In this document: positions 12,037 to 60,690 of the stretch, piece after piece
Position numbering within the stretch: the first letter of the stretch is position 1
Layout: the number at the start of each line of letters is the position of its first letter
Assembly: GCA_041674705.1 (NCBI GenBank)
Contig: JBAYVF010000004.1
Span: forward strand, 38,516 to 102,515
Reading direction: 5' to 3'
Source of the DNA: Candidatus Omnitrophota bacterium
GTDB taxonomy: Bacteria; Omnitrophota; Omnitrophia; Omnitrophales; Aquincolibacteriaceae
DNA length: 64,000 nucleotides
The notes under the pieces: model-generated
What the model was told of the DNA's origin: nothing
Seen by the model: the letters and a program-made list of their open reading frames with translations, nothing else
Database searches by the model: none
Made by a program: the position numbers and the translations under genes

Positions 12037-12073
12037 GGACTCGTTCCTCGAAAGAGTTTTGACGAGTCCCGAG
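12022..12073. repeat. REP-like GGGACTCG/CGAGTCCC palindromic element (copy 1), overlapping the RND stop codon
   Basis: GGGACTCGGGACTAGGGACTCG...CGAGTCCCGAG. The same motif family is present at 17758-17867 and 60626-60690. Confidence 0.6.
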
Positions 12074-12088
12074 CAACGGGGGTTTATT

Positions 12089-12292
12089 ATGACCATGGAA
12101 AAAATAATTCGCGTGATGGCGGGAACTTTCATTTTAGCAAGCGTCGCTCTGGCGATCTGGGTAAGCCCCTGGTGGCTCGTCTGGACGGCGCTTATCGGCG
12201 TGAATCTTATCCAGTCCGCCTTCACCGGTTGGTGTCTGGCCGAAAAGATCCTCAAGAAATTCGGCGTCCCTGGTTCCTGTTGCAGTCAATAG
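12089..12292 (+). CDS. DUF2892 (YgaP-like) small membrane protein
   Basis: 67 aa with two TM helices and a C-terminal GWCLAEK motif. GGGGG Shine-Dalgarno 7 nt upstream of ATG 12089. Confidence 0.55.
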   Translation: MTMEKIIRVMAGTFILASVALAIWVSPWWLVWTALIGVNLIQSAFTGWCLAEKILKKFGVPGSCCSQ

Positions 12293-12306
12293 CCGATATT
12301 ACCCCA

Positions 12307-12363
12307 TGTAACACCGGGTGTTAAAACGGTGTCATTTCCCCGAATGTAAGACCGGGTGTTACA
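12307..12363. promoter_or_regulatory. Two tandem 17-19-bp palindromes TGTAACACCGGGTGTTA and TGTAAGACCGGGTGTTACA (putative regulator or enhancer sites)
   Basis: Seen directly at 12307-12323 and 12345-12363. They lie 45-105 bp upstream of the TTGACA and TGGCAC elements. Confidence 0.4.
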
Positions 12364-12382
12364 TTTGGGTGAGGCCCTTTGA

Positions 12383-12426
12383 TTGACACTCCTTCCGCCT
12401 TCGGGCAGAATGGCACCACTTTTAAT
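12383..12426 (+). promoter_or_regulatory. Candidate gatCAB promoter(s): TTGACA-17-CAGAAT overlapping a sigma54-like TGGCAC-N5-TTAAT
   Basis: TTGACA at 12383-12388, CAGAAT at 12406-12411, TGGCAC at 12411-12416. The -12 element lacks GC, so the sigma54 assignment is weak. Confidence 0.35.
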
Positions 12427-12443
12427 CACGGGTCGGGAACTTG

Positions 12444-12566
12444 CCCCGTTAGAGATTCACGAGAAGAAATTGTGCGAGATTGATTTTTAATGAAAACATT
12501 TAAAGTGGTAGACATAGATAGCCAGACAAGCGGAAGCGCCCTAGGCGCTTCCTATCTCTAACGGGG
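12444..12566 (+). promoter_or_regulatory. Leader hairpin: 11-bp inverted repeat CCCCGTTAGAG...CTCTAACGGGG enclosing about 100 nt, with an inner 9-bp hairpin, ending 5 nt before the gatC ATG
   Basis: Arms at 12444-12454 and 12556-12566. Inner GGAAGCGCC-CTA-GGCGCTTCC at 12532-12552. The same arms recur at 45314-45416. Confidence 0.5.
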
Positions 12567-12571
12567 TAAAC

Positions 12572-12853
12572 ATGGAAATCAATATCGATAGAGTTGCGGA
12601 ACTTGCGCGGCTCAATCTTAAAGCCGAAGAAAAAAAGAAGCTCGAAAAAGACCTCGGGGCGATCCTCGACTACGTCAAAAAACTGGATAAGCTGGATACG
12701 TCCAAAGTCGAGCCCACGAGCCATGTCCTTAATATGGAGAACGTGTTCCGCCCTGATGAAGCCAAGTCTTCGGATGCCGCCTCAAAGGCCCTGGAACATG
12801 CCCCTCAGACCGAAGGCTCTTTCTTCAAAGTCCCCAAGATCGTGCAAAGATAA
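12572..12853 (+). CDS. gatC: Asp-tRNA(Asn)/Glu-tRNA(Gln) amidotransferase subunit C
   Basis: 93 aa with a typical GatC sequence (LARLNL..EE...L..IL.YV..L). Lies upstream of gatA. Confidence 0.9.
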   Translation: MEINIDRVAELARLNLKAEEKKKLEKDLGAILDYVKKLDKLDTSKVEPTSHVLNMENVFRPDEAKSSDAASKALEHAPQTEGSFFKVPKIVQR

Positions 12854-12887
12854 GTGCTAAGTGATAAGTGTTAAGCGATAGGCAGAA

Positions 12888-14321
12888 ATGAATACACCAC
12901 TCCATAAACTGACAGTGAAGGAAGCGATCGGGTTCTGCCAAAAAGGCGGGGCTCAGGAGCTTGTTCATGCTTTAACCGAGAGGGCCCAAAAGTTGAATCC
13001 TCTCGTGAACGCGTTTTTGCGGTTTAGTGCTTCCGATATCAACTTACCGCTTACCGCTGAACGCTTACCCCTCGCAGGTGTTCCCGTTTCTATTAAAGAC
13101 AACATCTGTATCGATGGCAGGGAAGTGACGTGCGCGTCGAAGATCCTGGCTAAGCACGTGCCTCCTTATAATGCCACCGTGATCGAGAAATTGAAGAGCG
13201 CGGGTGCGACACTTTTCGGCCAATGCAATATGGACGAATTCGCGTTCGGTTCTTCGTGCGAAACCTCGGCGTTCGGTCCGTGCAAAAATCCCTGGGACCT
13301 CACGCGCGTACCCGGAGGCTCGAGCGGTGGCTCTGCGGCTTCCGTCGCGGCAGACATGACGCTTGCGGCGCTCGGGAGTGACACCGGCGGTTCGATTCGT
13401 CAGCCCGCGGCGCTTTGCGGTGTGGTCGGCGTCAAGCCCACTTACGGCCGCGTGTCGCGCTACGGTCTTATCGCGTTCGGTTCAAGCTTTGACCAGATCG
13501 GTCCCATTACAAAAACCGTGGAAGATGCCGCCATTCTGCTGAATGTGCTGAGCGGCCACGACCCGAAAGATTCCACGTCCGCGTCTCAGTCCGTTCCTGA
13601 TTTTACGCAAGCGCTCAAGCGCGATGTGAAGGGCCTCAAGATCGGCCTTCCGAAAGAGTACTTCATTGAAGGGATTGATCCCCAGATCGAGAAAAGCGTT
13701 CGCGAAGCCGCGGAGATCTATAAGAAGCTCGGCGCCGAGATCAAGACGATCAGCTTGTCGCATACCGAACACTCGGTTGCGGTCTACTATATTGTGGCCG
13801 TGGCGGAAGCCAGCTCGAACCTTGGACGCTTTGATGGCGTCGAGTACGGCCTGAGGGTTCCCACAAAAGATCTTCGTGAAATGTATTTTGAAACGCGCGA
13901 CCAGGGGTTCGGCCAGGAAGCCAAGCGCCGCATTCTGCTCGGCACGTTCGTGCTCTCGGCCGGTTATTATGAGGCTTATTATCTGAAGGGCCAGAAAGTC
14001 CGTACACTTATTCGGCAGGATTTTGAGAAGGCGTTCAAGGAAGTGGACGTGATCTTGTCGCCCACCTCGCCCACGGCGGCGTTCAAGATCGGCGAAAAGT
14101 CCGCAGACCCGATCGCCATGTACCTTTCCGATATCTTTACGATCCCCGCGAACCTGGCCGGCATTCCCGCGATGTCGGTTCCGTGCGGTTTTACAAGCGG
14201 CGGTCTTCCCATAGGCTTGCAGCTTATGGCCAGGCCCTTTGACGAATCCACCATGCTCCGCGCGGCTTACGCTTTCGAGCAGGAAACCGGCATCTATAAA
14301 AAGAAACCGAAGTTAGACTAG
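12888..14321 (+). CDS. gatA: Asp-tRNA(Asn)/Glu-tRNA(Gln) amidotransferase subunit A
   Basis: Amidase signature GGSSGGSAASVAA. 477 aa. Confidence 0.95.
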   Translation: MNTPLHKLTVKEAIGFCQKGGAQELVHALTERAQKLNPLVNAFLRFSASDINLPLTAERLPLAGVPVSIKDNICIDGREVTCASKILAKHVPPYNATVIEKLKSAGATLFGQCNMDEFAFGSSCETSAFGPCKNPWDLTRVPGGSSGGSAASVAADMTLAALGSDTGGSIRQPAALCGVVGVKPTYGRVSRYGLIAFGSSFDQIGPITKTVEDAAILLNVLSGHDPKDSTSASQSVPDFTQALKRDVKGLKIGLPKEYFIEGIDPQIEKSVREAAEIYKKLGAEIKTISLSHTEHSVAVYYIVAVAEASSNLGRFDGVEYGLRVPTKDLREMYFETRDQGFGQEAKRRILLGTFVLSAGYYEAYYLKGQKVRTLIRQDFEKAFKEVDVILSPTSPTAAFKIGEKSADPIAMYLSDIFTIPANLAGIPAMSVPCGFTSGGLPIGLQLMARPFDESTMLRAAYAFEQETGIYKKKPKLD

Positions 14322-14346
14322 AGACTACAGACCAGAGACGACAGCG

Positions 14347-14562
14347 ATGACGAATAATTTGCATCATGCAGCTAAAAAGTATGTCGAAGTGATCGAGAAG
14401 ATTGAAAGAACCACCAATCCCAAAGAGTTGCAGGAACTTGAGGAGAAGCGGGTGGACCTGCACTGGAAGTTTATCGATCTGCTCAAAAAGCAGGGGATCA
14501 AATATAAAGACAGAGATCACGCAACCCGGATTGCCATACGGATTGCGCACGGAGAGTTATGA
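14347..14562 (+). CDS. Hypothetical small protein (71 aa) within the gatA-gatB insert
   Basis: ORF only. ATGA overlap with the next ORF. Lower GC than flanking genes. Confidence 0.4.
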   Translation: MTNNLHHAAKKYVEVIEKIERTTNPKELQELEEKRVDLHWKFIDLLKKQGIKYKDRDHATRIAIRIAHGEL

Positions 14563-14792
14563 CGACGCTTGAAATTGCTCGCATTTATACGGATCTGGTG
14601 AAGGCGGAGCGGGAGATTCCTGAAGCGGAGCACCAGGCCAAGGAAAAGATCAATGCTCTCCGGACCAAGTATCACGAGATCCTGATGGCAAAGATGCGGG
14701 AAGAACGGATCGATTTCTCCGATCGCTTCGACGCCGCAGCCAAGGCTTTCGATCTTGTTCGCGAAGAAGATTCAAAGTACGGTGGTAGGTAG
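14559..14792 (+). CDS. Hypothetical small protein (77 aa) within the gatA-gatB insert
   Basis: ORF only, charged and helical. Coupled to the previous ORF. Confidence 0.4.
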   Translation: MTTLEIARIYTDLVKAEREIPEAEHQAKEKINALRTKYHEILMAKMREERIDFSDRFDAAAKAFDLVREEDSKYGGR

Positions 14793-14835
14793 TTGCAGAG
14801 CATTTGTGCGGCGCCGCACGAATTGGAAATGAATT

Positions 14836-15006
14836 AGCTCGACGTCGAGCTTATTGAGATCAGGCTGGCAAGGCGGTTCGGGCAGTCGGGGGCCTTATAT
14901 CGTATATGATATACCTGCCTGCCGGCAGGCGGCAAAACAGTCGGCGCCGACTGTTTTGGCCAATAGTGTGGGGGAGCTAACCCCTCCCCACCGGACGCCG
15001 TCCGGT
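14836..15006. repeat. Cluster of five GC-rich perfect palindromes
   Basis: AGCTCGACGTCGAGCT (14836-14851). GCCTGCCGGCAGGC (14917-14930). AAAACAGTCGGCGCCGACTGTTTT (14934-14957). GGGGAG-ctaacc-CTCCCC (about 14970-14989). ACCGGACGCCGTCCGGT (14990-15006). Confidence 0.65.
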
Positions 15007-15024
15007 TGACAAGAATGGAGAGAG

Positions 15025-15591
15025 ATGAAGAAAGAGCCATTTGTGCCAAGCTTAGGCTCTGATGTAATTAAGAAGTTTTGTCAGTTGTGTGATTGGGCGT
15101 ATCAATCATGGCTAATGCAACGGACTCTTTTTGATGATAACCCTAATCTTTATGTTCTGGAAAAGGATAGTTTTCAGAGATTTTTTAGTCTTCTTAATAA
15201 TGTTACGCTCGAATATGCCCTTCAGCAGCTCATAAAGCTTCATGATCCGGCAATTATGAATGGCAAGATTAATCTGACGATTAATTGCATAGTCCAATAT
15301 GGCGACTGGGAAAAGAAGGTGAGGACGGATTTAAAAAGTCTTAGCGACGAGTTAGAGTTATTAGCCGGATGCCTGAGAGCGGCGAGGAATAAAGTTCTTT
15401 CTCATAACGATTTTCTGGCGTGCATGGAAAATGTGCCGATCGGTTGTTTTGAGGAAAACAAAGATAGGGATTATTTTGATAAGCTCCAAGAATTTGTAAA
15501 TATTGTTCATGATAAAACGATCGGCGGGCCTTATCCTTTTGATAGTTTGGTGCAAAGTTACACCCGCGAATTTTTGAGTGCGCTGAAATAG
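15025..15591 (+). CDS. Hypothetical protein, low-GC cargo gene; possible HEPN-like Rx5H motif
   Basis: 188 aa, AT-rich codon usage. Motif RNKVLSH near residue 120. No confident family match. Confidence 0.5.
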   Translation: MKKEPFVPSLGSDVIKKFCQLCDWAYQSWLMQRTLFDDNPNLYVLEKDSFQRFFSLLNNVTLEYALQQLIKLHDPAIMNGKINLTINCIVQYGDWEKKVRTDLKSLSDELELLAGCLRAARNKVLSHNDFLACMENVPIGCFEENKDRDYFDKLQEFVNIVHDKTIGGPYPFDSLVQSYTREFLSALK

Positions 15592-15633
15592 CATTAGTAA
15601 CTGCGGCTATTCCTGTGCGCTAAAGTAATCAAA

Positions 15634-16197
15634 ATGATTCAAAGGGGAAGCCTGGTGGACGACAAATTGTTGAATGACATAGCAAAAAGCTTTGTTGTGA
15701 CGGCGCTTAGCTATACCAACCAGAACTGGCGGACATTTTGTCAGTCTTGGAGCAAGGCGTTGAAGGCTGATTTGTCAGGAGACGCTGAGGCTAAACTAGA
15801 ATTTTCGATGGCCATTATCGGGTTGGGCTTGTCACGCATTAAACGAGATTCTTTGGAAAATACTGCATCGCGTGAAGTTGGCAAGGTGCAGGCTGAGAAG
15901 ATTAGAGATTATTTGAGGGTGATGTCGGGCAACTTAGGTGATGAGCCATGGGAAAAGGCAATGAAGTATCATAATGCTTATGAAAATTGTCCCAATTTCG
16001 ATTCGAGATTTGATAAACCTCCTTTTGAAAGCCGCGTGGAAGCAATAGCCGTGGTTTTATTCGATTCTTTTAAAATAGCGCATCTTATTAAAATAGGAGG
16101 TCGCATCTCTTACGAACCTCTTACGCTTATGATGCTTGCTGGTACAGTTTTGGCAGCTTACCAAGACTGTAAAAACACATTTCAGAGTTTATTATGA
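15634..16197 (+). CDS. Hypothetical protein, low-GC cargo gene
   Basis: 187 aa, AT-rich. Partner of the previous ORF. No recognisable domain. Confidence 0.5.
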
Positions 16198-16325
16198 ACT
16201 ACGAACCTGTGATCGGACTTGAGGTCCACGTACAGCTGAAAACAAAGAGCAAGCTGTTTTGTTCGTGCTTCCGCCACACAGCGCGGCGGACAGGCGACGG
16301 AATTCGGTTAAGGAATGAATTATGA
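16194..16325 (+). pseudogene. Diverged duplicate of the gatB 5' end (25 gatB codons, then unrelated sequence to a stop)
   Basis: [25 protein letters not shown] matches gatB residues 1-25 ([25 protein letters not shown]) with about 22 synonymous nt differences. Its ATG overlaps the stop of the upstream cargo ORF. Confidence 0.7.
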
Positions 16326-17773
16326 ATTATGAGCCCGTGATAGGTTTGGAAGTGCATGTTCAATTGAAGACAAGATCAAAGTTGTTTTGTTCTTGTTCCA
16401 CCACTTTTGGCGAGGAAGGTAATAAGAATACATGCCCCGTGTGTCTCGGCTGGCCGGGGTCATTGCCGGTACTGAACGAAGCGGCGCTGAAACTCGGGAT
16501 TCGGGTGGGGCTTGCGCTTAATTGCAAGATCGCCGAGCGGCTCAAGTTCGACCGGAAGAATTATTTTTATCCGGATCTTCCCAAAGCCTACCAGATCTCG
16601 CAATTCGATATGCCGGTGAACGGCCGCGGCGAACTTCTCATCGAAACAAAAGATGCGGAAGGAAAAATGATCGAGCGAAAGATCGGGATTACTCGTGCGC
16701 ACCTGGAAGAAGATGCCGGGAAGCTTCTGCATGAAGGCATCGCGGACGGCAGTCTCGTGGACTACAACCGCGGCGGTATCCCGCTTCTTGAGATCGTCTC
16801 CGAACCGGATCTCGGAAGCCCGCAAGAGGCGCATGACTATCTCACCGCGCTCAAGGCCATCCTTCAATATGTGGAAGTGAGCGACTGCGATATGGAAAAG
16901 GGGAGCCTTCGCTGCGACGCGAACGTGTCGGTGCGGCCCGTGAGCCAGGAAAAACTCGGGACCAAGGTCGAGATCAAGAACCTGAACTCGTTCAAGATGG
17001 TGGCGCGAGCGATCCAGTACGAGATCGAACGGCAGACGGAAGCGCTTGAACGCGGGGAGGCGATCGTCCAGGAAACGCGACTTTGGAGTGACGCCGAGGG
17101 CATGACGGTTTCCATGCGTTCCAAAGAAGATGCCCACGACTACCGTTATTTTCCCGAGCCCGACCTTGTGCCTTTCACCTTGTCGCGCGAAGTCGTAGAG
17201 GCGATCCGGAAGACTTTGCCGGAATTGCCGCTTGAGCGCGCGAAGCGGTTCATCAAAGAATTCGGCATTCCGGAATATGATGCCTATGTGCTGGTGCAGG
17301 AGAAAAAACTGGCCAACTATTTTGAATCCTGCATTCGCGAAGGCGCCGCGCCGAAGCTCGCGAGCAATTGGATCCAAAATGAACTCTTGGCGCTGCTGAA
17401 TGTGAAAAACATCGCGATCGATGAGTGCCTGGTTTCGCCCCACGCGCTTGCCGGACTGATCCGGCTGGTCGAAAAAGGGATCGTAAGCGGGAAAACCGCT
17501 AAAGATGTTTTTCAGGAAATGGCGGCGACCGGTAAAACGGCGGACGTAATCGTTAAAGAAAAAGGCCTCACGCAGGTTTCGGATACCGGGCTCATTGAAA
17601 AAGCCGTTGAAAAAGCGATCGCCGCGAATCCCACGGCCGTCGCGGAATTCAAGGCCGGCAAACAAAAAGCCCTCGGCGCGCTGGTGGGTGCCGTTATGAA
17701 AGAAACCGGCGGCAAGGCGAATCCGAAAGTGGTTAATGAAATTCTCATTAACAAGCTGGGGACTCGTAGCTAG
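16322..17773 (+). CDS. gatB: Asp-tRNA(Asn)/Glu-tRNA(Gln) amidotransferase subunit B
   Basis: 483 aa, canonical GatB. Its last codons (GTRS*) are supplied by the REP-like element. Confidence 0.95.
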
Positions 17774-21493: not shown

Positions 21494-21513
21494 TGGTACA
21501 TAAGAGTTGAGGT

Positions 21514-21828
21514 TTGGAAGTGAAGATCACGGAAATTCGCGTTTTTCCCCAAGCGAATAAAGAAAACAAGTTGTGTGCCTTTGCCAACATCACCTTTGAC
21601 GGTTGTTTTGTGGTGCGTGGCCTGAAGGTTCTCGAAGGGTCGAAAGGCCTTTTTGTGGTGATGCCGTCCCGCAAGGTCAAAGGCGATGATTACCGGGACG
21701 TGGCGCACCCCATCACGGCGGAGTTTAAGGATTATATTCAGAGCGAGGTCTTGAAAGCCTACGAGCTTTTTATCGAACATCAGCCCCAGGCCCAAGCGCT
21801 CAATGACGACGATCCGTTTGAGCGTTAG
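21514..21828 (+). CDS. spoVG: SpoVG family protein
   Basis: MEVKITEIRV...FVVRGLKVLEGSKGLFVVMPSRK. TTG start with GAGGT Shine-Dalgarno. Confidence 0.8.
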   Translation: MEVKITEIRVFPQANKENKLCAFANITFDGCFVVRGLKVLEGSKGLFVVMPSRKVKGDDYRDVAHPITAEFKDYIQSEVLKAYELFIEHQPQAQALNDDDPFER

Positions 21829-21829
21829 A

Positions 21830-22078
21830 ATGTCTTTTTTTGTTTATGGTCTCGAGAGTAAAAAAGACGGTCGGCATTACGTGGGAAGCGGTGAAGATGT
21901 TGACGAAAGATTGCGGCGGCACAATTTAGGCGATTATCGTTATACTAAAGGTCATCGGCCGTGGATTGTGATTTACAAGGAATCCTGCAAGTCACGCTCA
22001 GAAGCTGTAAAGCGGGAACGGTTTTTTAAATCCGGCGTAGGGCGCAAGTTCTTAAAAGAAATTATTAGTTCGAAATAA
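21830..22078 (+). CDS. Small stand-alone GIY-YIG nuclease-domain protein
   Basis: FFVYGLESKKDGRHYVGSGEDVDERLRRHN...RPW...ESCKSRSEAVKRERFFKSGVGRKFL. Start moved to MSFFVYG, 1 nt after the spoVG stop. Confidence 0.7.
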   Translation: MSFFVYGLESKKDGRHYVGSGEDVDERLRRHNLGDYRYTKGHRPWIVIYKESCKSRSEAVKRERFFKSGVGRKFLKEIISSK

Positions 22079-22086
22079 CAAAGTAT

Positions 22087-22157
22087 TGCCCCGTGGTGAA
22101 ATGGTATCACACTGCCCTTTGGAGGCAAGGTTTCTGGTTCGAGCCCAGACGGGGCAG
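22087..22157 (+). tRNA. tRNA-Gln (anticodon UUG)
   Basis: Hand-folded cloverleaf. Acceptor TGCCCCG/CGGGGCA with U1:A72 and G73. U8. D-arm GTGA-AATGGTA-TCAC. Anticodon loop CTTTGGA. T-arm TCTGG-TTCGAGC-CCAGA. No CCA is encoded. Confidence 0.8.
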
Positions 22158-22415
22158 ATTTTAAGAATCAAAGAACGGTTTTAAGGGAGCCCTTTTCCGC
22201 CTGAGGCGGATTCGTCCGCAAGGCGAATCCGATGATGAACGGATTCGCCTCTGGCGAAGGAGGCAAGGTTTCTGGTTCGAGCCCAGACGGGGCAGATTTT
22301 AAGAATCAAAGAACGGTTTAAGGGAGCCCTTTTCCGCCTGAGGCGGATTCGTCCGCAAGGCGAATCCGATGATGGACGGATTCGCCTCTGGCGAAGGAGG
22401 CAAGGTTTCTGGTTC
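22121..22415 (+). repeat. Tandem 138/137-bp repeat (about 2.15 copies), each unit starting with the 3' half of tRNA-Gln (GGAGGCAAGGTTTCTGGTTCGAGCCCAGACGGGGCAG)
   Basis: Units begin at 22121, 22259 and 22396. The last unit is truncated. Units contain several small GC hairpins (CCGCC-TGA-GGCGG, CGGATTCG..CGAATCCG). Confidence 0.75.
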
Positions 22416-27578: not shown

Positions 27579-27717
27579 CGACGGTCCCAATGCTTATCAA
27601 TTTCAGCGGATCTGAAATTGGGGCCGTCCTGACGGCCATTGATGAAAAGAAAATAAAAGTCAGGACGGATTTCCCGGGAGTCGCGCAAGCGTCCCCGGGA
27701 GGATCCTGAGGGCTCTG

Positions 27718-28299
27718 ATGAAACTCATCGTTGGGCTTGGGAATCCCGGAGACGAATACGCCCGCACGCGGCACAATATCGGCCGCCGGCTCATGGAGTT
27801 CATCGCTGAAGATGAGAAAGTAAAGCTCGCTTCCAAAAAGTCCCAGAAAGCGGCTCTGGCTTCGGTGTTGTGGAATCAAGAGGCCGTTCACCTGGCGCAT
27901 CCGCTCACCTATATGAATCTTTCCGGCGAAGCGATCGCGGCGCTTGTAAAATATTGGAAGGTCGCGGCGGACAAAGATCTTTTAGTCGTAGTCGATGATG
28001 TCGCGTTGCCTTTTGGAAAATTCCGTTTGCGGGGCGAGGGAAGTTCGGGCGGGCATAATGGCCTTGCCTCGATCGAAGAACATCTTGGGAGCCGTGCCTA
28101 TCCGAGGCTTAGGATCGGGATCGGTCCTTGCGAGAAAGGAACGGACGAGTCGCTTCGGGATTATGTGCTTTCTCCCTTTAAGGTCTTAGAAGAAAAGAAA
28201 ATGAAAACGCTTCTTGGGGCCGGGGCGGAAGCGTGCCGGGCCTGGGCGTTAGAGCCCCTGGCGAAGGCGATGAATCGGGTCAATGCTGTCACGTTGTGA
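27718..28299 (+). CDS. pth: Peptidyl-tRNA hydrolase
   Basis: MKLIVGLGNPG..Y..TRHNIG signature. Confidence 0.9.
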   Translation: MKLIVGLGNPGDEYARTRHNIGRRLMEFIAEDEKVKLASKKSQKAALASVLWNQEAVHLAHPLTYMNLSGEAIAALVKYWKVAADKDLLVVVDDVALPFGKFRLRGEGSSGGHNGLASIEEHLGSRAYPRLRIGIGPCEKGTDESLRDYVLSPFKVLEEKKMKTLLGAGAEACRAWALEPLAKAMNRVNAVTL

Positions 28300-29797: not shown

Positions 29798-30253
29798 ATG
29801 GAATTATTGCTTTTAAAAAATGTGACAGATGTTGGCAAAAAAGGCGATGTCGTACGCGTCCGTGACGGGTTCGCAAGAAATTTCCTGATGCCTCAGGATC
29901 TCGCGATCCCGGCAACCCGTGCGAACAAGCAGTTCTTTGCGGAAAAGCGCGCCCGTAACGTTGTGCGCAAGGCCAAAGAAAAAGAAATCGCCGAAAAACG
30001 AGCTAAAGAGATGAAGGATCTTACGATCACCCTCGAAGTCCGCGCAGGCGAAGGGGACAAGCTTTACGGCTCCGTGACCGCCGAGGACCTTCGTGTGGCG
30101 CTTGAAAAACAAGGACACAGTTTTGAAAAAAAGCAGGTCCGGATCAAGGACGCTTTGAAGACCCTGGGTACGCATCAGGTGGATCTCGAGATCTACCCGC
30201 AGGTCAAGACACGTCTGACGGTTGAGCTCGTCCGCGGCCCTGATTCTCATTAA
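29798..30253 (+). CDS. rplI: 50S ribosomal protein L9
   Basis: MELLLLKNVTDVGKKGDVVRVRDGFARNFLMPQ is the canonical L9 N-terminus. Confidence 0.9.
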   Translation: MELLLLKNVTDVGKKGDVVRVRDGFARNFLMPQDLAIPATRANKQFFAEKRARNVVRKAKEKEIAEKRAKEMKDLTITLEVRAGEGDKLYGSVTAEDLRVALEKQGHSFEKKQVRIKDALKTLGTHQVDLEIYPQVKTRLTVELVRGPDSH

Positions 30254-30350
30254 TTTTAATATCAACGGGTAATCAGGACAGTCCGATTCAGCGTTTTTGA
30301 AAAGAAGATAGGGAATTGGACGACCGTCTTAACCTCTCTAGAGGTCATTT

Positions 30351-45772: not shown

Positions 45773-45790
45773 ACCCAACTAAAAAGAGTA

Positions 45791-45854
45791 TCCCGGCCCA
45801 AAATCGCCTCCCCTGGCGATTGAGAAGTACCCCTTCTCGGGGCCGGGATTTTTC
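45791..45854 (+). terminator. Repeated 64-nt compound terminator element (copy 1)
   Basis: TCCCGGCCC...nested AATCGCC-tcccctg-GCGATT...GGGGCCGGGA followed by TTTTT. Near-identical to 47610-47674. Confidence 0.55.
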
Positions 45855-45976
45855 TTGCCCTGTTTTTTTGGATGTCGGGTGTTGGATCATTCCTAAAAAC
45901 TACAAAATTGTAATACCTCAAAATGTTTCTGCCTTCTCAAAATAAAATCCTACTGTAAGCCCGATTTTTCCTAACT

Positions 45977-45992
45977 TGGCATGATATATGCA
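45977..45992 (+). promoter_or_regulatory. Sigma54-type promoter (TGGCAT-N5-ATGCA) upstream of the Fis-like gene and porin; CTACAAAATTGTAA motif at 45900-45913
   Basis: GG-N10-GC spacing conserved. The motif lies about 65 bp upstream. Confidence 0.5.
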
Positions 45993-46035
45993 CTGTTTCC
46001 AATGGGTTCATTAACAGCCAATCGAAATTCAAGGT

Positions 46036-46242
46036 TTGAAGCAAATGGAGAATTTTAAACTGGATCATGGAGCTCTTCCAAATGAAGGGAGGCTTCTAAA
46101 TGCTGTTCATGAGCTTGAAAGGCAGATGATTGAGAAGGCCATGGCGCGCTCCGGGGGAAACCAACGCGTGGCCTCGGAAATCCTGGGGATCACGGAGCGT
46201 ATGCTGGGATATCGCTTAAAACATTACGGAATGAATTTTTAG
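46036..46242 (+). CDS. Stand-alone Fis-family HTH DNA-binding protein (68 aa)
   Basis: C-terminal NQRVASEILGITERMLGYRLKHYGM resembles the Fis/NtrC C-terminal HTH. Confidence 0.6.
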   Translation: MKQMENFKLDHGALPNEGRLLNAVHELERQMIEKAMARSGGNQRVASEILGITERMLGYRLKHYGMNF

Positions 46243-46274
46243 GAAGCATTTTAGAAATACAACAACTGGAGGAA

Positions 46275-52252: not shown

Positions 52253-54829
52253 TTGATCAGCTCGGGAGTCAAAGGTCTCGATAAAGTAACCACAGGATTG
52301 CGCCTCGGCGATAATGTTGTTTGGCAGGTCGACGCGATCCACCATTACGCGGAATTTGTCGCCCCCTTCGTCCAAAAAGCCCTCGAAGAAAAAAGAAAAC
52401 TTGTCTATATCCGCTTTGCCAATCATGAGCCTCTCCTGAAGGAAGACAAGAACATCACCGTCTACAAGCTCGACCCGCATATGGGCTTCGAGCCTTTTTC
52501 CGCCGCGATCAACAGTATCGCGAAAAAAGAAGGCGAAGGCGTTTTTTATGTTTTTGACTGCCTCTCGGACCTGCTTTCGGCTTGGGCCAATGACCTCATG
52601 ATCGGGAATTTTTTCAAAATCACCTGTCCCTACCTTTATGAGTTGAACACGATCGCTTATTTTGCTCTTTTGCGAAGCCGGCATTCGTTCAAGACCGTCG
52701 CGCGTATCCGGGACACGACCCAGCTTTTGATCGATGTGTATTATTACCATGGGGATTGTTACATCCATCTCCTGAAGGTCTGGAACCGGTATTCGCCGAC
52801 GATGTTCTTGCCCCATGTCCGGCAGAAGGAAAAATTTATTCCCATCGCCAATAGCGCCGATACGGCCAAGGTCTTTTCCGAGATCTTCAAAAAAGGAGCC
52901 AAGAGCGCGAAGCGGAATCTGGATTACTGGGACCAGCTTTTCCTGAAGGCGGAAGACCTTGCAGGCAAAAAAAGCGGTTCTAAAGAAGTGAAAGAACAAA
53001 TGATGGATCAGTTGTGCCGGATCGTATTGGCCCGCGACGAAAAAATGCTGGCTCTGGCCAAGGAAAATTTTGGGTTGGAAGATCTCCTGAATATCAAGTC
53101 GAGGATGATTGGGACCGGGTTCATCGGAGGGAAGTCGGTGGGGATGCTGATCGCCCGGAGCATTTTGCAGAGAGAGAAATCTTTGGAGACGGAAAAACTT
53201 TTTGAGCCGCATGACTCTTTTTACATCGGTTCGGATGTCTTCTACACTTATATCGTAGAAAATGGCCTGTGGAAAGACCACATGGCGCAGAGGACTCCGG
53301 AAGGTTATTTGGAAGTGGCCGGAAAACTTCACGAGGAGTTGGTGCGAGGCACCTTTCCCGAAGAGATCAAGGACCAGTTCCTCCAGATGATCGAGTATTT
53401 CGGACAGTCGCCGATCATCGTTCGTTCCAGCAGTTTGCTCGAAGACAGTTACGGGAATGCCTTTGCCGGGAAATACGAAAGTGTTTTTCTCGTTAACCAG
53501 GGAACGCCCGATGAACGTTATGCGAAATTCGTCGAAGCCGTTCGCCGGATCTATGCTTCTACGATGAACCCCGACGCCTTGGCCTACCGGTTGCAGCGCG
53601 GATTGGATCAGATGGATGAGCAAATGGCGCTCCTGGTCCAGCGGGTCTCAGGCGCCTACCATCAGGACTATTTTTTCCCGGATGCCGCCGGCGTCGGGAT
53701 CTCGCAGAACGTTTTCGTCTGGAAAAGCGGCCTGGACCCTAAAGCCGGCATGTTGCGCTTGGTCTTAGGGTTAGGGACCCGAGCGGTCAATCGCGTGGAG
53801 GGGGATTACCCGCGGGTCGTGGCTTTGGATGAGCCGCTTCTCAAGGCTTATGCGGGGATGGCGGCAACCCAGAGGTTTTCGCAGCACGACGTGGATGTCT
53901 TGAACGTTAAAGAAAATACCCTGCAAACGATCTCTTTCAGGAAATTGCTGAAGGAGAAAGTAGAAATGCCTCTGGATCTCCTGGCGATCAAAGATCACGA
54001 GGTCGCGGAAAAATTGCAGGCGGCGGGGTCGGACGAGGAGCCCTGGATCATCACTTTCGACAAACTTGTTTCCGAAACAACGTTTGCCTCGATCATGCAA
54101 AAAATCCTCAAGGTCCTGGAAACAGCTTATGGATATCCCGTCGATATCGAATTCACGGTCAATTTCAAAAAGAACGGCGCGTTCCAGGTGAACCTGCTTC
54201 AATGCCGGCCGATGCAGACCAAGGGCTTGGGGCATCGCGTCAAGATCCCGAAAACGATTTCCAAAGACAAGGTTCTTTTCCAGTCGAAAGGAAACTTTCT
54301 GGGCGGGAACATTTTGCAGGCCATTGATAAGATCATTTACGTGGACCCGGAAGCCTATTGCGGGCTGGAAACTCAGTCGGAGCGTTATGATATTGCGCGC
54401 GTGGTCGGAGAGCTCAATCGCAAGATCGAGAGTAAGGAAAAAACGGCCGTCATGCTTTTGGGCCCCGGCCGGTGGGGGACCACCACGCCGTCTTTAGGGG
54501 TGCCGGTTTCTTTTGCCGAGATCAATCATATTACCGTTCTTGGAGAGATCGCGTTTGTGACGGAGAATGCATCTCCCGAGATCTCCTTCGGGACCCATTT
54601 CTTTCAGGATCTTGTGGAGACGGGGATCTTCTACGTAGCGCTTTTCCCGGGTGATTCAGGCGTTTCGATGGATCAGAAATTTTTCGATGCGATCCCCAAG
54701 ACGCTGAAGAAGCTGGCGCCGGAATACAAAAAATATGAGCACGTGGTCAAGGTATTCGACGTGAAGAAGAACGACCTCAAGATCGCGGCAGACATCCTTT
54801 CTCAAAAAGTCGTCTGCTACTTTGGGTAA
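52253..54829 (+). CDS. Hypothetical 858-aa fusion protein: Walker-A-less KaiC/RecA-like N-terminal domain plus PEP-utilising-enzyme N-terminal (PPDK_N, ATP-grasp-like) nucleotide-binding domain plus uncharacterised C-terminal region
   Basis: N-terminal ISSGVKGLDKVTTGLRLGDNVVWQVD matches the KaiC-type I-x-TG-x-GLD-x-L-GG-L pattern but has no GKT. Middle region has GFIGGKSVGMLIA and IIVRSSSLLEDSYGNAFAGKYESV, matching PPDK_N/PEP synthase motifs. TTG start with AAGGAG Shine-Dalgarno 13 nt after the carB stop. Confidence 0.55.
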   Translation: MISSGVKGLDKVTTGLRLGDNVVWQVDAIHHYAEFVAPFVQKALEEKRKLVYIRFANHEPLLKEDKNITVYKLDPHMGFEPFSAAINSIAKKEGEGVFYVFDCLSDLLSAWANDLMIGNFFKITCPYLYELNTIAYFALLRSRHSFKTVARIRDTTQLLIDVYYYHGDCYIHLLKVWNRYSPTMFLPHVRQKEKFIPIANSADTAKVFSEIFKKGAKSAKRNLDYWDQLFLKAEDLAGKKSGSKEVKEQMMDQLCRIVLARDEKMLALAKENFGLEDLLNIKSRMIGTGFIGGKSVGMLIARSILQREKSLETEKLFEPHDSFYIGSDVFYTYIVENGLWKDHMAQRTPEGYLEVAGKLHEELVRGTFPEEIKDQFLQMIEYFGQSPIIVRSSSLLEDSYGNAFAGKYESVFLVNQGTPDERYAKFVEAVRRIYASTMNPDALAYRLQRGLDQMDEQMALLVQRVSGAYHQDYFFPDAAGVGISQNVFVWKSGLDPKAGMLRLVLGLGTRAVNRVEGDYPRVVALDEPLLKAYAGMAATQRFSQHDVDVLNVKENTLQTISFRKLLKEKVEMPLDLLAIKDHEVAEKLQAAGSDEEPWIITFDKLVSETTFASIMQKILKVLETAYGYPVDIEFTVNFKKNGAFQVNLLQCRPMQTKGLGHRVKIPKTISKDKVLFQSKGNFLGGNILQAIDKIIYVDPEAYCGLETQSERYDIARVVGELNRKIESKEKTAVMLLGPGRWGTTTPSLGVPVSFAEINHITVLGEIAFVTENASPEISFGTHFFQDLVETGIFYVALFPGDSGVSMDQKFFDAIPKTLKKLAPEYKKYEHVVKVFDVKKNDLKIAADILSQKVVCYFG

Positions 54830-54869
54830 TCCGCAATTCCACAGACCTATTCCTTAGGTTTTTTTGAAG

Positions 54870-55142
54870 ACAATCCCAATGCGAAGAGGCGCGCTCGCGA
54901 GACGGAACGGGCACGGTGGCGAACAGGAATCGCCTCTCGACACCGGCTGTTCACTCGCTCCTGCGGCGAGTGCCAGCCTGCGCTCTCGCTGATGGGACCT
55001 GCCCAGCTGAGCAGGACCAAGCTCCCATCAGCTCCGAGAGCTGTCTCGATGCGATTCCTGTCCGCCGAGTGAAGTCGAGCGCGCGAGCGAAGATCGCCTC
55101 GCTGGGGCGATCTGAGTGGTGACGAAGCGCATTGGGATTGTT
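54870..55142. repeat. 273-bp foldback (long imperfect palindrome) element with 14-bp terminal inverted repeats ACAATCCCAATGCG/CGCATTGGGATTGT
   Basis: Terminal repeats at 54870-54883 and 55129-55142. Internal arms are also mutually complementary (GCGATTCCTGT..CGCC on both sides, GCTGATGGGA/TCCCATCAGC around the centre). Confidence 0.6.
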
Positions 55143-55374
55143 AAGTGACTAACCATGAGATGAAAGGCCAGGCCGATTTTCGGACAGCACTTGCCCTCTT
55201 CTGATAAAAATATAAGGTTGGCAAGTACAGTCCTTGTCTCGCATTTCATTTCCACAAAGGTTGACAAGGACAGCCCCAATCTCAGCTCAGCTGAGATTGA
55301 TTGGTATTGGGACAGTCCAAATCAACATTTAAAAACATAAGATAAGAGTTTGGACTGGCGTTACCGGAGTTTCG

Positions 55375-55770
55375 ATGTTAAATTACCCTCCTATGCAAAG
55401 ACCCACTAAAACATTCATCACACTTTTTGTCCTGCTCGCTTTTGCCTGTCCTTTAATGGCCGCGGAAGTGGCCCCGGAGGCCACGATCCAGGAAGAAGGA
55501 ACGATGTTGCGCAAAGCACAACGCGGGTTTCTTAATATCGCGCTTTGTCCCTTCGAGATATCCAATGAGCTTTCCAAAGAAGTCCGCAATGACACACTCC
55601 CTCCGAGTTGGTTTGCAGGATTAGGGCGCGGCGCTTTTTACATGGTAGGACGTGCTTTGGTGGGGGTTTATGAAGTGGTGACTTTCCCGATCCCTTATCC
55701 GGCAAAGTACAAACCGGTCATCCAGCCGGAATTCCCCTGGCAGCTCGCGAAAGAGAAGCCTAATTTTTAA
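55375..55770 (+). CDS. Hypothetical secreted protein (signal peptide)
   Basis: TFITLFVLLAFACPLMAAEVAP signal sequence. 131 aa. No confident family. Confidence 0.5.
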   Translation: MLNYPPMQRPTKTFITLFVLLAFACPLMAAEVAPEATIQEEGTMLRKAQRGFLNIALCPFEISNELSKEVRNDTLPPSWFAGLGRGAFYMVGRALVGVYEVVTFPIPYPAKYKPVIQPEFPWQLAKEKPNF

Positions 55771-55779
55771 GCAGCAACC

Positions 55780-56919
55780 TTAGTTATTTCTTCCCAGAAA
55801 GTTGCAAACTTCCTTCGCGGCTCGCGCGCTTGCGCCTTTTTCTCCAAGTTTCTCTCTCACCTGACGGAACTCCTCTTTCATCTTCTGCTGCAATTCCGGG
55901 GTTTGGAGAAAGAACTTGGCTTCATGGGCAAGCGTTTCGGGGTGGGCGTCTTGCTGAATGAATTCAGGGACAACCTTGTCGTCGGCGAGGAGATTGACGA
56001 GTCCGAGGTAGGGGACTTTAATGAGGTGTTTGCCGAGAAGGTAGGTTGACCAGCTCGCTTTATAGAGAAGAAAGAAAGGCGTTCCGATGAGCGCTGTTTC
56101 AAGCGTTGCGGTGCCGGAAGCCACATAGGCAAAGTCCATGGCCTTCACAAGCTCATAAAAAGGAACAGCAGGACAAGTCACCTTCACGCCGGATGCCGCG
56201 ACGATTTCATCATACACAACCGACGGCACATTGGCAGATTTTGAAAGAAAAAAAGCGGTTTCCGGAAGATCTTTTTGAAGATAAGCCGCGGCCCGGAGCA
56301 TGATGGGGAGAATGCGTTTGACCTCTTTTTCCCGTGAACCTGAAAAAAGGCCAATCGCTTTTTGTTTCGGAGTGATCCCGATCTTGGCACGTAGTATCGC
56401 GGCTTCCGGAAGCTCCGGGATCGCGTCGAGCAGGGGATGGCCGACGAATTTGACCGCCACGCCTTCCTCTTCGTAAAAATCCTTCTCAAATGGCAGGATC
56501 ACGAGCATTTCCTGAATGTGCTTGCGCACGATATGGATCCGGCGTTTTCCCCAGGCCCAGAGCTGCGGGGAGATGTAATAAAGGACGGGGGCGGCCTTCG
56601 GGAGCTTTTTCGCGAGACGAAGGTTGAAGGCCGGAGAGTCGATCAGAATAATGGCATCTGGCTTTTCTCTTCGGATATTAGCGAGCGTTTCGTTGAAGAT
56701 CTTCAGGTATTTGAAATAATTCCGGAGCACGTCGCCCAGGCCCAGCGCAGAGATCTTTGTCATATCGTGAAAAACCTGCATCCCAGCGGCTTGCATCTTG
56801 GCGCCGCCGACACCACAGAACTGAGTCCCGGGCATGAGCCTTTGGATTTCGGAAATAAGATGAGCGCCGTGGAGATCGCCCGAGGCTTCGCAGGCCACTA
56901 GAAAAATTTTATGGGTCAT
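55780..56919 (-). CDS. lpxB: Lipid-A-disaccharide synthase
   Basis: GT-B glycosyltransferase with N-terminus MTHKIFLVACEASGDLHGAHLI. Start moved from 56985 to 56919. Confidence 0.85.
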   Translation of the reverse strand: MTHKIFLVACEASGDLHGAHLISEIQRLMPGTQFCGVGGAKMQAAGMQVFHDMTKISALGLGDVLRNYFKYLKIFNETLANIRREKPDAIILIDSPAFNLRLAKKLPKAAPVLYYISPQLWAWGKRRIHIVRKHIQEMLVILPFEKDFYEEEGVAVKFVGHPLLDAIPELPEAAILRAKIGITPKQKAIGLFSGSREKEVKRILPIMLRAAAYLQKDLPETAFFLSKSANVPSVVYDEIVAASGVKVTCPAVPFYELVKAMDFAYVASGTATLETALIGTPFFLLYKASWSTYLLGKHLIKVPYLGLVNLLADDKVVPEFIQQDAHPETLAHEAKFFLQTPELQQKMKEEFRQVREKLGEKGASARAAKEVCNFLGRNN

Positions 56920-59941: not shown

Positions 59942-60034
59942 TCAGGCTTTAGTCAGCAGACCACAGATCGCAGACAACAGACTGGAAGCGGTTGCGCCAG
60001 TCCCGGCAAGCTTAATGTGTTTAGAATATCCAAT

Positions 60035-60082
60035 AAAAAAGCCCCCGTGCTTTCTTGCAAAAGCAAGAACGGGGGCTTTTTT
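60035..60082. terminator. Bidirectional rho-independent terminator between msbA and the convergent minus-strand gene
   Basis: AAAAAAGCCCCCGT...ACGGGGGCTTTTTT with an inner CTTGC-aaaa-GCAAG. Confidence 0.7.
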
Positions 60083-60110
60083 GCTTTAGTTCGTGGTTAT
60101 TATAGCCTGA

Positions 60111-60539
60111 CTAGAACTTGAAGAGTTTGATCTTGGCGGCGTCGCCGGAACCTTTTTCGGCTTGTTCAATCTCGTAACTGTCATCTTTCGCGTAGCCGAG
60201 GGACGCGACCTTTTTAACGCCTTTAATGGTGTTATCGACGACCTTTTCCCCGGCCTGTTGCGTTCCGTCCAGGGTTCCAACGACGGGCTTTTCGCTCATG
60301 GTGCCGTGGGCCGTATCTCCGAGGGTGTCCTTGACGTTGTCATAGGTTACTTCTTTGATCCCCGTCGCAAAATTCTTCGCCGGATGGCGTTTTTCTTGGG
60401 CTTGTGTATCTTGATCCATCGCTTTTTGGACCTTTTCCTGCGCGCGAGCCTCTTGATCATACTGGTCCGGTTTTCGCGCCATGCCGACATTTGCCAGGGC
60501 AATGACAAGAACAAGGATAACGAGAATTCTCTTTTCCAT
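60111..60539 (-). CDS. Hypothetical secreted or membrane-anchored protein, Lys/Glu/Asp-rich
   Basis: N-terminal hydrophobic segment ILVILVLVIALANVGMA. 142 aa. No family match. Confidence 0.5.
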   Translation of the reverse strand: MEKRILVILVLVIALANVGMARKPDQYDQEARAQEKVQKAMDQDTQAQEKRHPAKNFATGIKEVTYDNVKDTLGDTAHGTMSEKPVVGTLDGTQQAGEKVVDNTIKGVKKVASLGYAKDDSYEIEQAEKGSGDAAKIKLFKF

Positions 60540-60625
60540 TTAGGGACCCCTTAGTTAGCTTATTTAGGAGAGCAAACAGGAATAGTATACATAAACGGGT
60601 TTTAAAGTAAATCCAAATGGAAAAC

Positions 60626-60690
60626 GGGACTCGTACCTCGGGACTCGTTTTGGTTCCTCGTTTTTACGAGTCCCTAGTCCCGAGTCCCGG
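60626..60690. repeat. REP-like GGGACTCG/CGAGTCCC element (copy 3)
   Basis: GGGACTCGTACCTCGGGACTCG...CGAGTCCCTAGTCCCGAGTCCCG, upstream of hom. Confidence 0.6.

Follow-up and report, generated by a model that had tools for sequence, protein, structure and literature searches.

The window analysed here is a 64,000-nucleotide (64-kb) stretch of contig JBAYVF010000004.1 from a Candidatus Omnitrophota bacterium (assembly GCA_041674705.1) and represents housekeeping core chromosome. Within it, a 545-bp spacer separates a PPDK_N-domain gene (858 aa), which sits after carA and carB, from a 125/131-aa open reading frame (ORF) without a Pfam match, beyond which lpxB lies on the opposite strand. The spacer holds a 272-bp GC-rich foldback repeat, denoted here as a copy of family A, followed by a cluster of smaller hairpins that includes a copy of a second family, B. 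No transposase, integrase, recombinase or HUH gene was found among the genes of the window.

A previous sequence-only reading of this DNA had described a 273-bp foldback element with 14-bp terminal inverted repeats and two complementary halves. The terminal repeats were borne out: the 14-nt ends are 100% complementary and are separated by 244 nt (Table 1), although the total length is 272 bp, not 273 bp. The foldback structure was supported by nested arms of 9, 25 and 13 nt that are 100%, 84% and 92% complementary, respectively, and by single-strand folding, which gave −150.0 kcal/mol (z = −7.1) for the plus strand and −149.7 kcal/mol (z = −7.0) for the minus strand, with none of 200 shuffles as good on either strand. 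The complementarity of the two halves is imperfect, however, with 182 identical positions in 305 columns when the copy is aligned to its own reverse complement. The copy is indeed GC-rich, with a GC fraction of 0.60–0.67, compared to 0.37–0.47 in the remaining spacer. The terminal 14-mer had two matches in the window against 0.77 expected, which is not significant by itself, and no further matches in the window or in loci L006–L024. The significance of the element rests on the z-score of its fold and on the family found elsewhere.

Copies, fold and flanks of family A

One minus-strand frame is stop-free through the entire window copy, and its translation was used purely as a degenerate six-seed DNA probe. 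This search identified at least ten loci in GTDB genomes and at least nine in Joint Genome Institute (JGI) metagenomes, and at least 19 further family A copies are present in at least 12 Omnitrophota metagenome-assembled genomes (MAGs) or metagenomes. All named hosts among the matches listed were Candidatus Omnitrophota; among these matches, there were at least three copies in MAG CAYZYT01 and at least two each in JAZDFE01 and JBAZJC01. Two copies are found 50 kb apart on JGI contig Ga0172380_10000152, and one extra copy, known from a spurious ORF only, has a radical-SAM gene on one side and an Fe-SOD gene on the other. The possibility raised earlier, that the element is unique and its structure unconserved, is contradicted by these copies and by the conserved fold described below.

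The other copies are 84–93% identical to the window copy over their full length at the DNA level, and are 263–276 bp long, or 345–433 bp with inserts. Their ends are sharp (GCAATCCCAaTGCG...CGCAyTGGGATTGC, or GCAATCCCAATGCG-type), while the flanks are unrelated between copies. The consensus terminal repeats are present in 17 of 18 full copies, the exception being L006, which has one decayed end. Most copies have the ends GCAAT...ATTGC; the window ends (ACAAT...ATTGT) are a minority variant, and position 10 is variable. Consequently, a search of the JGI metagenomes for the exact window pair at the correct gap gave no match. Taken together, the copies make up a star-like set in which about 45% of the columns are invariant, and those within one genome are 85–92% identical. 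All 19 copies are intergenic, located in tandem (12), divergent (four) or convergent (two) spacers, and the two orientations relative to the neighbouring genes occur at about 6:7 in tandem spacers, including that of the window. Two copies (L014 and L019) are truncated at about position 76–80. In both (L014 2837–2994 and L019 2589–2749), the truncated A is joined to a common GC-rich segment of ~160 nt, 83% identical between the two loci; it contains inverted repeats of its own and may represent a third foldback family. BLAST of the element against plasmids and phages gave no match, a scan of viral contigs revealed no relative, and an Rfam scan of positions 54000–56000 at a permissive threshold gave no match at E ≤ 1. 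Across the whole window, the only Rfam match at gathering level was one tRNA (22087–22157).

Family A is non-coding. Codon-phase variability is flat across the copies (0.091/0.085/0.079), there are single-base indels and deletions of 7–12 nt, indel lengths do not keep to multiples of three, and none of the frames stays open throughout the copies. When compared to 5.8 billion protein clusters, the stop-free translation matched four spurious ORFs only. The small ORFs 54916–55122 and 55028–55279, for which the sequence-only reading had left room as conserved coding sequence, exist mechanically, but they match nothing in Pfam and show no conservation as coding sequence.

The consensus fold of the 18 full copies, from an alignment (A1) written on the minus strand of the window, contains 84 pairs, at which 96.8% of the cells pair. 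Both sides were changed in 20 pairs, compared to 9.0 ± 1.6 in column shuffles (none of 500 had as many) and to 3–5 in a control in which the partners were slid by 1–3 columns. Compensatory changes within single copies extend to the terminal stem, as in CCCTTTGCG/CGCAAAGGG in L009 and CCGAGTG/CACTCGG in L018. An RNA acting from one strand should tolerate G-U pairs on that strand only, which makes the symmetry of G-U pairs informative. Of the pairs, 61 were predicted for both strands alike; among these, reading the plus strand gave 24 G-U cells in 14 columns, and reading the minus strand gave 16 in 13 columns. The plus-strand alignment folds somewhat better than the minus-strand alignment (−138.5 vs. 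−122.6 kcal/mol). A scan that covered sigma-70-type promoters only found no sigma-70-like promoter in 54700–55500. A candidate sigma-54 promoter at TGGCAC within A was rejected, since the GG-to-GC spacing in the consensus is 8 nt, not 10. The G-U symmetry, the even orientation and the lack of a sigma-70-type promoter and of an Rfam match favour selection on a DNA-level hairpin, either single-stranded DNA or a cruciform, over an RNA function on one strand.

Target-site duplications (TSDs), which had been considered in the sequence-only reading, did not materialize: direct flank repeats of 3 nt or more were found in none of 17 copies, and repeats of 2 nt in two of the 17, compared to a mean of 0.64 in a re-pairing control. 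There were no consistent TA termini. In seven of the 17 copies, the flanks are complementary over 3–8 nt, thereby prolonging the terminal stem (TTA/TAA, ATCA/TGAT, CAA/TTG, GGTCC/GGACC and TTTTGGAA/TTCCAAAA are examples). When the flanks were re-paired between copies, a mean of 1.4 were complementary, and none of 2000 re-pairings reached seven. A TA or TNA duplication typical of IS630/IS5-like MITEs (miniature transposable elements with inverted repeats) was rejected, since the flanks are inverted, not direct. Part of the flank signal stems from a recurrent outer motif, (T)TTGGAA, often with a T-run before it. The left flank of the window copy is TTTTTTTGAAG, and a weak terminator-like hairpin (Table 1) lies just past the stop codon of the PPDK_N gene (54827–54829), 4 nt before the element; this hairpin was not called in a consensus terminator scan. 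Other copies also abut a T-run and then (T)TGGAA, with flanks like gggttttttg.tttggaa followed at the border by GCAAT in L006, L015, L016 and L020. Complementary flanks of ~25–33 nt were seen in L012, and were less clear in its orthologue, L007.

Orthologous loci were compared with the element masked. In three of four orthologous pairs (L006/L016, L007/L012 and L013/L014, with flanks 77–93% identical), the element is inverted relative to both flanks, while in L006/L015 it has the same orientation. In the flipped pairs, one junction is at the same position, and a few tens of nucleotides differ at the other. Orthologous copies are 83–84.5% identical, no closer than copies from unrelated loci (82–94%). 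At two loci common to CAYZYT01 and JBAZJC01, 14 columns were diagnostic of the genome, compared to three diagnostic of the locus and two for a control grouping. Such variants, specific to the genome and not to the locus, mean that the copies of one genome either undergo concerted evolution or give way to the variant current in that genome. Static insertions handed down by simple vertical descent are excluded. Turnover may proceed by re-insertion at sites that are preferred, by inversion together with gene conversion, or by both routes; the conserved junction favours inversion, whereas the differing junction and the genome-tracking variants favour replacement. The copy at L013/L014 adjoins the orthologue of the window gene at 60111–60539, where the window has no copy. 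Positions 59942–60111 of the window were considered as a clean empty site for this insertion, but rejected, as synteny is present on one side only.

Family B and the surrounding locus

Downstream of the foldback repeat, the sequence-only reading had noted a 9-bp-stem hairpin and a palindrome as further, isolated structures. The hairpin (GTCCTTGTC/GACAAGGAC) was located at 55230–55238 and 55263–55271, whereas the palindrome (CAATCTCAGCT-C-AGCTGAGATTG) occupies 55277–55299 and not 55279–55302 as first given; it fits a terminator-like pattern in a terminator scan. Rather than being isolated, these structures make up a copy of family B, a repeat of ~84 nt with two hairpins that also inserts into A. 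A profile search mapped 12 full B copies. Hairpin 1 has a 9–11-bp stem of variable sequence and an AT-rich loop of ~20–25 nt. It is followed by a conserved domain, CCCCAAT-stem-loop-stem-ATTGATAGGTATTGGGA, in which the stem covaries between copies. In the window copy, GTCCTTGTC...GACAAGGAC constitutes hairpin 1, and the hairpin-2 domain reads CCCCAAT-CTCAGC-T-CAGCTGAG-ATTG-ATTGGTATTGGGA. B copies are bordered by direct repeats of 3–7 nt (CCG, CCGCC, CCGTC, CCGT, CTAT, CAG and CAGTCC, the last in the window at 55228–55233 and 55313–55318). Hairpin 1 has the left border repeat as its outer 5' arm, and the complement of this repeat is usually found just before CCCCAAT. An ATTGGGA motif at the 3' border is common to A and B, which suggests that one enzyme may serve both families. 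A candidate IHF site in B (ATCAA....) was rejected because its TTR part is absent.

Blocks of ~80 nt are present in some A copies at three fixed sites, after alignment-strand positions 63, 181 and 223. These inserts align with the window B copy at 55228–55312 and with a second copy at 27585–27668 on the minus strand, and both filled and empty sites are visible among the A copies at all three positions. A variant, B', fills the third site in L011 and L015. All three sites correspond to loops or junctions of the A fold, and none falls within a helix. In three of the 12 copies (the window, L015 and L020), B is free-standing and located 48–90 nt from the same end of A.

Four related hairpins are clustered at positions 55182–55357 of the window. 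Relatives of the B'-like hairpin at the start of this cluster are a hairpin at L004 7001–7052 and, in the B' inserts of L011 and L015, the second hairpin. The 3' arm of the B'-like hairpin overlaps the start of B, which is inserted into that arm. A further hairpin, built like hairpin 1 of B, lies on the far side of the hairpin-2 domain, where there is also a weak minus-strand B match (55353–55277, E = 9.5e-4), so that the window B looks like a head-to-head pair sharing one hairpin-2 domain. The L004 hairpin is 81% identical to window positions 55185–55234 and is found at the 3' end of a 126-aa gene; since L004 has no A copy, B'-type hairpins are more widely distributed than A. The second full B copy in the window lies between the genes for ribosomal protein L25 (26832–27578) and pth (27718–28299). 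The weak partial match is located between the gene for ribosomal protein L9 and dnaB, and may be a decayed B copy.

Table 1. Coordinates of the repeats and hairpins in the window.
Feature	Position	Strand	Description
Family A copy	54870-55141	none assigned	Non-coding foldback repeat with perfect 14-nt inverted ends; at least 19 further copies, covariation
Left terminal inverted repeat, ACAATCCCAATGCG	54870-54883	+	Family consensus GCAATCCCAaTGCG
Right terminal inverted repeat, CGCATTGGGATTGT	55128-55141	+	Family consensus CGCAyTGGGATTGC
Weak terminator-like hairpin, ACCTA-TTCCT-TAGGT, then seven T	54845-54865	+	Read from sequence
Family B copy	55228-55312	+	nhmmer E = 1.9e-19, profile positions 2-84
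Second full B copy	27585-27668	-	E = 9.4e-19; direct repeat CCGTC at borders
Weak partial B-like match	30237-30302	+	E = 0.0016, profile positions 3-68; membership uncertain
B'-like hairpin, GGACAGCACTTGCC / GGCAAGTACAGTCC	55182-55233	+	14-nt arms 86% complementary, 24-nt AT-rich loop
Hairpin, CAGTCCAAA / TTTGGACTG	55313-55357	+	27-nt AT-rich loop; built like B hairpin 1

The locus was compared to that of four relatives in which the PPDK_N protein is 90–92% identical to that of the window. Nucleotide homology to these relatives ends at 54833 and restarts at ~55371 (55346 in L005). In three of them (L002, L003 and L005), the same spacer contains a DPBB_1 (RlpA-like) gene, and in the fourth it has only ~48 nt. 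No DPBB_1 remnant was detected by tblastx in the window spacer. The 545-bp window spacer is probably best explained as a whole as a mosaic of selfish repeats (A, B and the B'-like hairpin) that is absent from the closest relatives.

The DPBB_1 gene of the relatives is preceded by a conserved structured leader (L002 6655–6798, and at the same position in L003 and L005), which gave a sub-threshold match to the c-di-GMP-I riboswitch (26.2 bits vs. a gathering score of 35, E = 0.0024). In L002, L003 and L005 (1–3985), the PPDK_N gene is preceded by a tandem pair of carB-like genes (1073 and 1096 aa), in place of the carA and single carB of the window; L004 has neither there. Elsewhere in the window, a region at 14322–16197 contains an ORF with a HEPN_AbiU2 domain (15025–15591, Pfam E = 2e-9) and an unannotated 187-aa ORF (15634–16197). 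The pair is located between a gatA-like amidase gene (12888–14321) and gatB (16322–17773), after a 704-nt gene-free gap, and has the look of a small islet for abortive infection or defence that was inserted into the gatCAB region. Other gene-free gaps of 500–850 nt are found at 12037–12887, 21494–22317 (which holds the tRNA) and 45773–46274. A 60-nt segment at 60625–60684 is 82% alike to a segment of the otherwise unrelated L011 (3526–3586), and could be one more small repeat or else a conserved gene fragment.

Mobility and competing explanations

Family A is probably a non-coding, non-autonomous foldback mobile element of Omnitrophota intergenic spacers, and family B a smaller element that occurs alone as well as nested in A. 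This account is supported by the repetition of the elements, the sharpness of their ends, their polymorphic insertion and turnover, their nesting, and selection for structure that acts on both strands. Both families would be, or would recently have been, moved in trans by an enzyme whose gene lies elsewhere in the genome and which would recognise the folded terminal stem carrying ATTGGGA at the 3' border in both families. The substrate would most likely be single-stranded DNA, as with IS200/IS605-RAYT-type HUH enzymes on REP/REPIN hairpins. Such enzymes are a known precedent for single-strand mobilisation that reads hairpins (PMC8266576, PMC3116915). A single-strand step is favoured by the lack of TSDs, by the strand-symmetric compensation, and by the presence of B only where a folded A would be single-stranded. 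Insertion of A would leave no target duplication and would prefer T-rich or short palindromic intergenic sites. Effects on the host would be secondary: where it is co-transcribed, the strong hairpin could plausibly affect how stable the neighbouring transcripts are, or their read-through, as ERIC and Correia elements are reported to do.

Several observations weigh against mobility. The mobilising enzyme is purely inferred, and there is no transposase, integrase or HUH gene within the 64-kb window. Inverted repeats at the termini typify DDE transposons more than they do elements mobilised by HUH enzymes. No pair of copies is more than 94% identical, and there is no sign of a very recent burst. 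The gene-like conservation of A beside spacer DNA that cannot be aligned could mean a host function instead of selfish persistence, and the flipped orientation could arise by inversion in place and not by re-insertion. Finally, clean comparisons of filled and empty sites for A are lacking at two loci: the spacer of the relatives at the window locus is unrelated sequence, and the synteny at L013/L014 is broken on one side.

A more elaborate, and rather unlikely, version of the mobile element is that A and B form a cooperating structure-directed single-strand DNA mobile system specific to Omnitrophota, in which a segment of B would act like a guide and A would be re-inserted or replaced in either orientation at unchanged intergenic sites, which would make its copies within one genome evolve concertedly. 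B does carry a short internal segment complementary to its own border repeat. If such a system existed, its enzyme would read hairpin geometry, not duplex sequence, and it would represent a new hairpin-targeting form of transposition, not a variant of DDE-type MITEs.

The structured non-coding RNA proposed in the sequence-only reading, which could be a multi-copy small RNA family or a cis-regulatory element of untranslated regions acting on stability or attenuation, with one strand transcribed, would account for the strong fold and its covariation, for the high conservation across genomes next to unalignable spacer DNA, and for the better folding of the plus-strand alignment. We do not favour it, and give it only a slim chance: the pairs common to both strands show no asymmetry between G-U and A-C (24 vs. 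16 cells, 14 vs. 13 columns), the orientation in tandem spacers is close to even and flips between orthologous loci, insertions of 80 nt are tolerated at three sites, and neither a sigma-70-like promoter (54700–55500) nor an Rfam match was found. The tolerance for B at three sites also argues against a structural DNA element, such as a protein-binding platform or a cruciform, that was recruited by the host and is kept by selection at each locus instead of by mobility. BIMEs have been proposed as binding platforms with gyrase and IHF, and a role of this kind would agree with the star-like set of copies with ~45% invariant columns and no near-identical pairs, with the symmetrical preservation of structure on both strands and with a level of conservation comparable to that of flanking genes. 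However, close relatives differ in the presence or absence of the element at the same locus, one end has decayed in L006, and the copies in L014 and L019 are truncated; moreover, we know of no candidate binding protein. Such a structural role is therefore also quite improbable.

The three flipped pairs out of four, each with one junction at the same position, and the conserved inverted repeats at the ends are what would be expected of an inverton, i.e., a segment flipped in place by a recombinase encoded elsewhere, with many such segments across the genome. E. coli fimS and the invertible promoters of Bacteroides are examples of such switches, and fimS, at 314 bp with 9-bp repeats, is close to family A in size. 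Yet the interior of A, at 60–67% GC, is nearly palindromic, so that the two orientations would differ little, and the sigma-70-type scan revealed no promoter-like motif in or around the window copy. The variants track the genome and not the locus (14 vs. 3 columns), and the immediate junctions differ between flipped orthologues, suggesting replacement over simple flipping. Copies are also found in convergent spacers, and the window contains no recombinase gene. We thus consider an inverton very improbable. That the segment is a palindrome arisen by chance, a local terminator found nowhere else or a small gene for a protein can practically be dismissed: the stop-free minus-strand frame and the terminator-like downstream palindrome would fit one or the other, but not the existence of at least 19 further copies, the fold z-score of −7, the lack of codon periodicity, the single-base indels and frame-breaking inserts, or the mere four spurious ORFs among 5.8 billion protein clusters.

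As a probable mobile element of an uncultured and widespread phylum, family A is a clear example of a long, branched foldback with pairing conserved on both strands. Its unusual features are its length, the module nested at permissive sites, the flipped orthologues and the homogenisation by genome, which make it a good system for asking how palindromic repeats that have neither promoter nor transposase persist and move. Several copies lie close to the end of a contig or on a short one, so the repeats are a probable cause of some of the contig breaks in Omnitrophota assemblies. A and B could serve as strain markers, and a covariance model of both would prevent the mis-annotation of genes, four spurious ORFs having already been annotated in this way.

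Comparison with known repeat families

Family A works most like the ERIC/IRU, Correia/NEMIS and REP/BIME/REPIN mosaics, but is a member of none of them. The miniature transposable (MITE-like) element suggested in the sequence-only reading holds up in that A is a dispersed, multi-copy, non-coding family with sharp inverted ends and a long stem-loop that differs in presence or absence between relatives. It fails with regard to TSDs (none in 17 copies) and size, since bacterial MITEs are described as shorter than 200 bp (about 100–200 bp), often with a TA duplication, compared to the 263–276 bp of A (PMC2229807).

ERIC is itself regarded as a MITE, and in Yersinia its transcribed hairpin affects mRNA stability in an orientation-dependent manner (PMC2229807). 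Like A, the 127-bp ERIC/IRU sequences are imperfect, non-coding palindromes with long stem-loops that occupy intergenic, co-transcribed positions in either orientation, and their sequence is conserved from species to species although they lie at different places. At 272 bp, A has twice the length, and its inverted ends are 14 nt instead of 7 nt. Longer ERIC variants, as Wilson and Sharp are said to have described in 2006, reportedly result from internal insertions at fixed sites, as in A with B. ERIC has TA termini and a TSD (PMC2229807), both of which A lacks. It also belongs to a different phylum, and A has no detectable sequence relationship to known families in Rfam, plasmids or phages.

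The Correia/NEMIS elements of Neisseria share with A the bounding inverted repeats, non-coding nature and multiple copies. They come in size classes of 107 and 155 bp that differ by an internal 50-bp block (PMC2229807), comparable to the size classes of A, and form mosaic intergenic regions with other repeats (PMC3733652). Unlike in Correia, the internal block of A is a repeat family in its own right, of which some copies stand alone. In Correia elements, the inverted ends are 24 nt long, and there is a TA duplication together with an IHF site or promoter motifs (PMC2229807); none of these features are found in A.

REP, BIME and REPIN sequences resemble A as intergenic hairpins with stems kept by compensatory changes (PMC3116915), and in combining different hairpin units into mosaics, or BIMEs (PMC8266576), as A and B do. 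REP dimers are sometimes found within longer, locus-specific palindromes (PMC3733652), recalling the inverted flanks of A. REP/REPIN insertions likewise have no TSD, and are proposed to be mobilised as folded single-stranded DNA. However, REPs are 20–50-nt palindromes tagged with GTAG (PMC8266576), whereas A is 272 nt long and its fold is branched. Neither GTAG nor CTAC can be seen in the ends or interior of the A consensus, GTAG occurs in B only in a variable loop of two copies, and there is no RAYT (HUH Y1) gene within the 64-kb window. REPIN populations contain many identical master copies, unlike the 85–92% identical copies of A within a genome.

Family B has its closest counterpart in the CGTC-tagged REPs (Di Nocera et al. 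2013), which are small hairpin repeats, often in head-to-head dimers, and have no dedicated transposase gene adjoining them (PMC3733652). Many B copies start with C-CGTC-C. The CGTC REPs have stems of 8–9 bp and loops of 4–5 nt (PMC3733652), compared to 9–11 bp and an AT-rich loop of ~20–25 nt in hairpin 1 of B. B differs further in its second conserved hairpin domain and in its variable tag (CGTC, CGCC, AGTC or AGCC).

Like fimS and the Bacteroides invertons, A is a segment of a few hundred base pairs, bounded by inverted repeats, with an orientation that differs between related genomes; both orientations were seen at three loci. It is distinguished from them by its palindromic interior, by the evidence for replacement, and by having neither a promoter (sigma-70-type scan) nor an adjacent recombinase. 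A full-text literature search found no paper linking Omnitrophota with MITEs or REPs, and no interspersed repeats described. Family A is a previously undescribed variant of the known small mobile palindromic repeats of bacteria.

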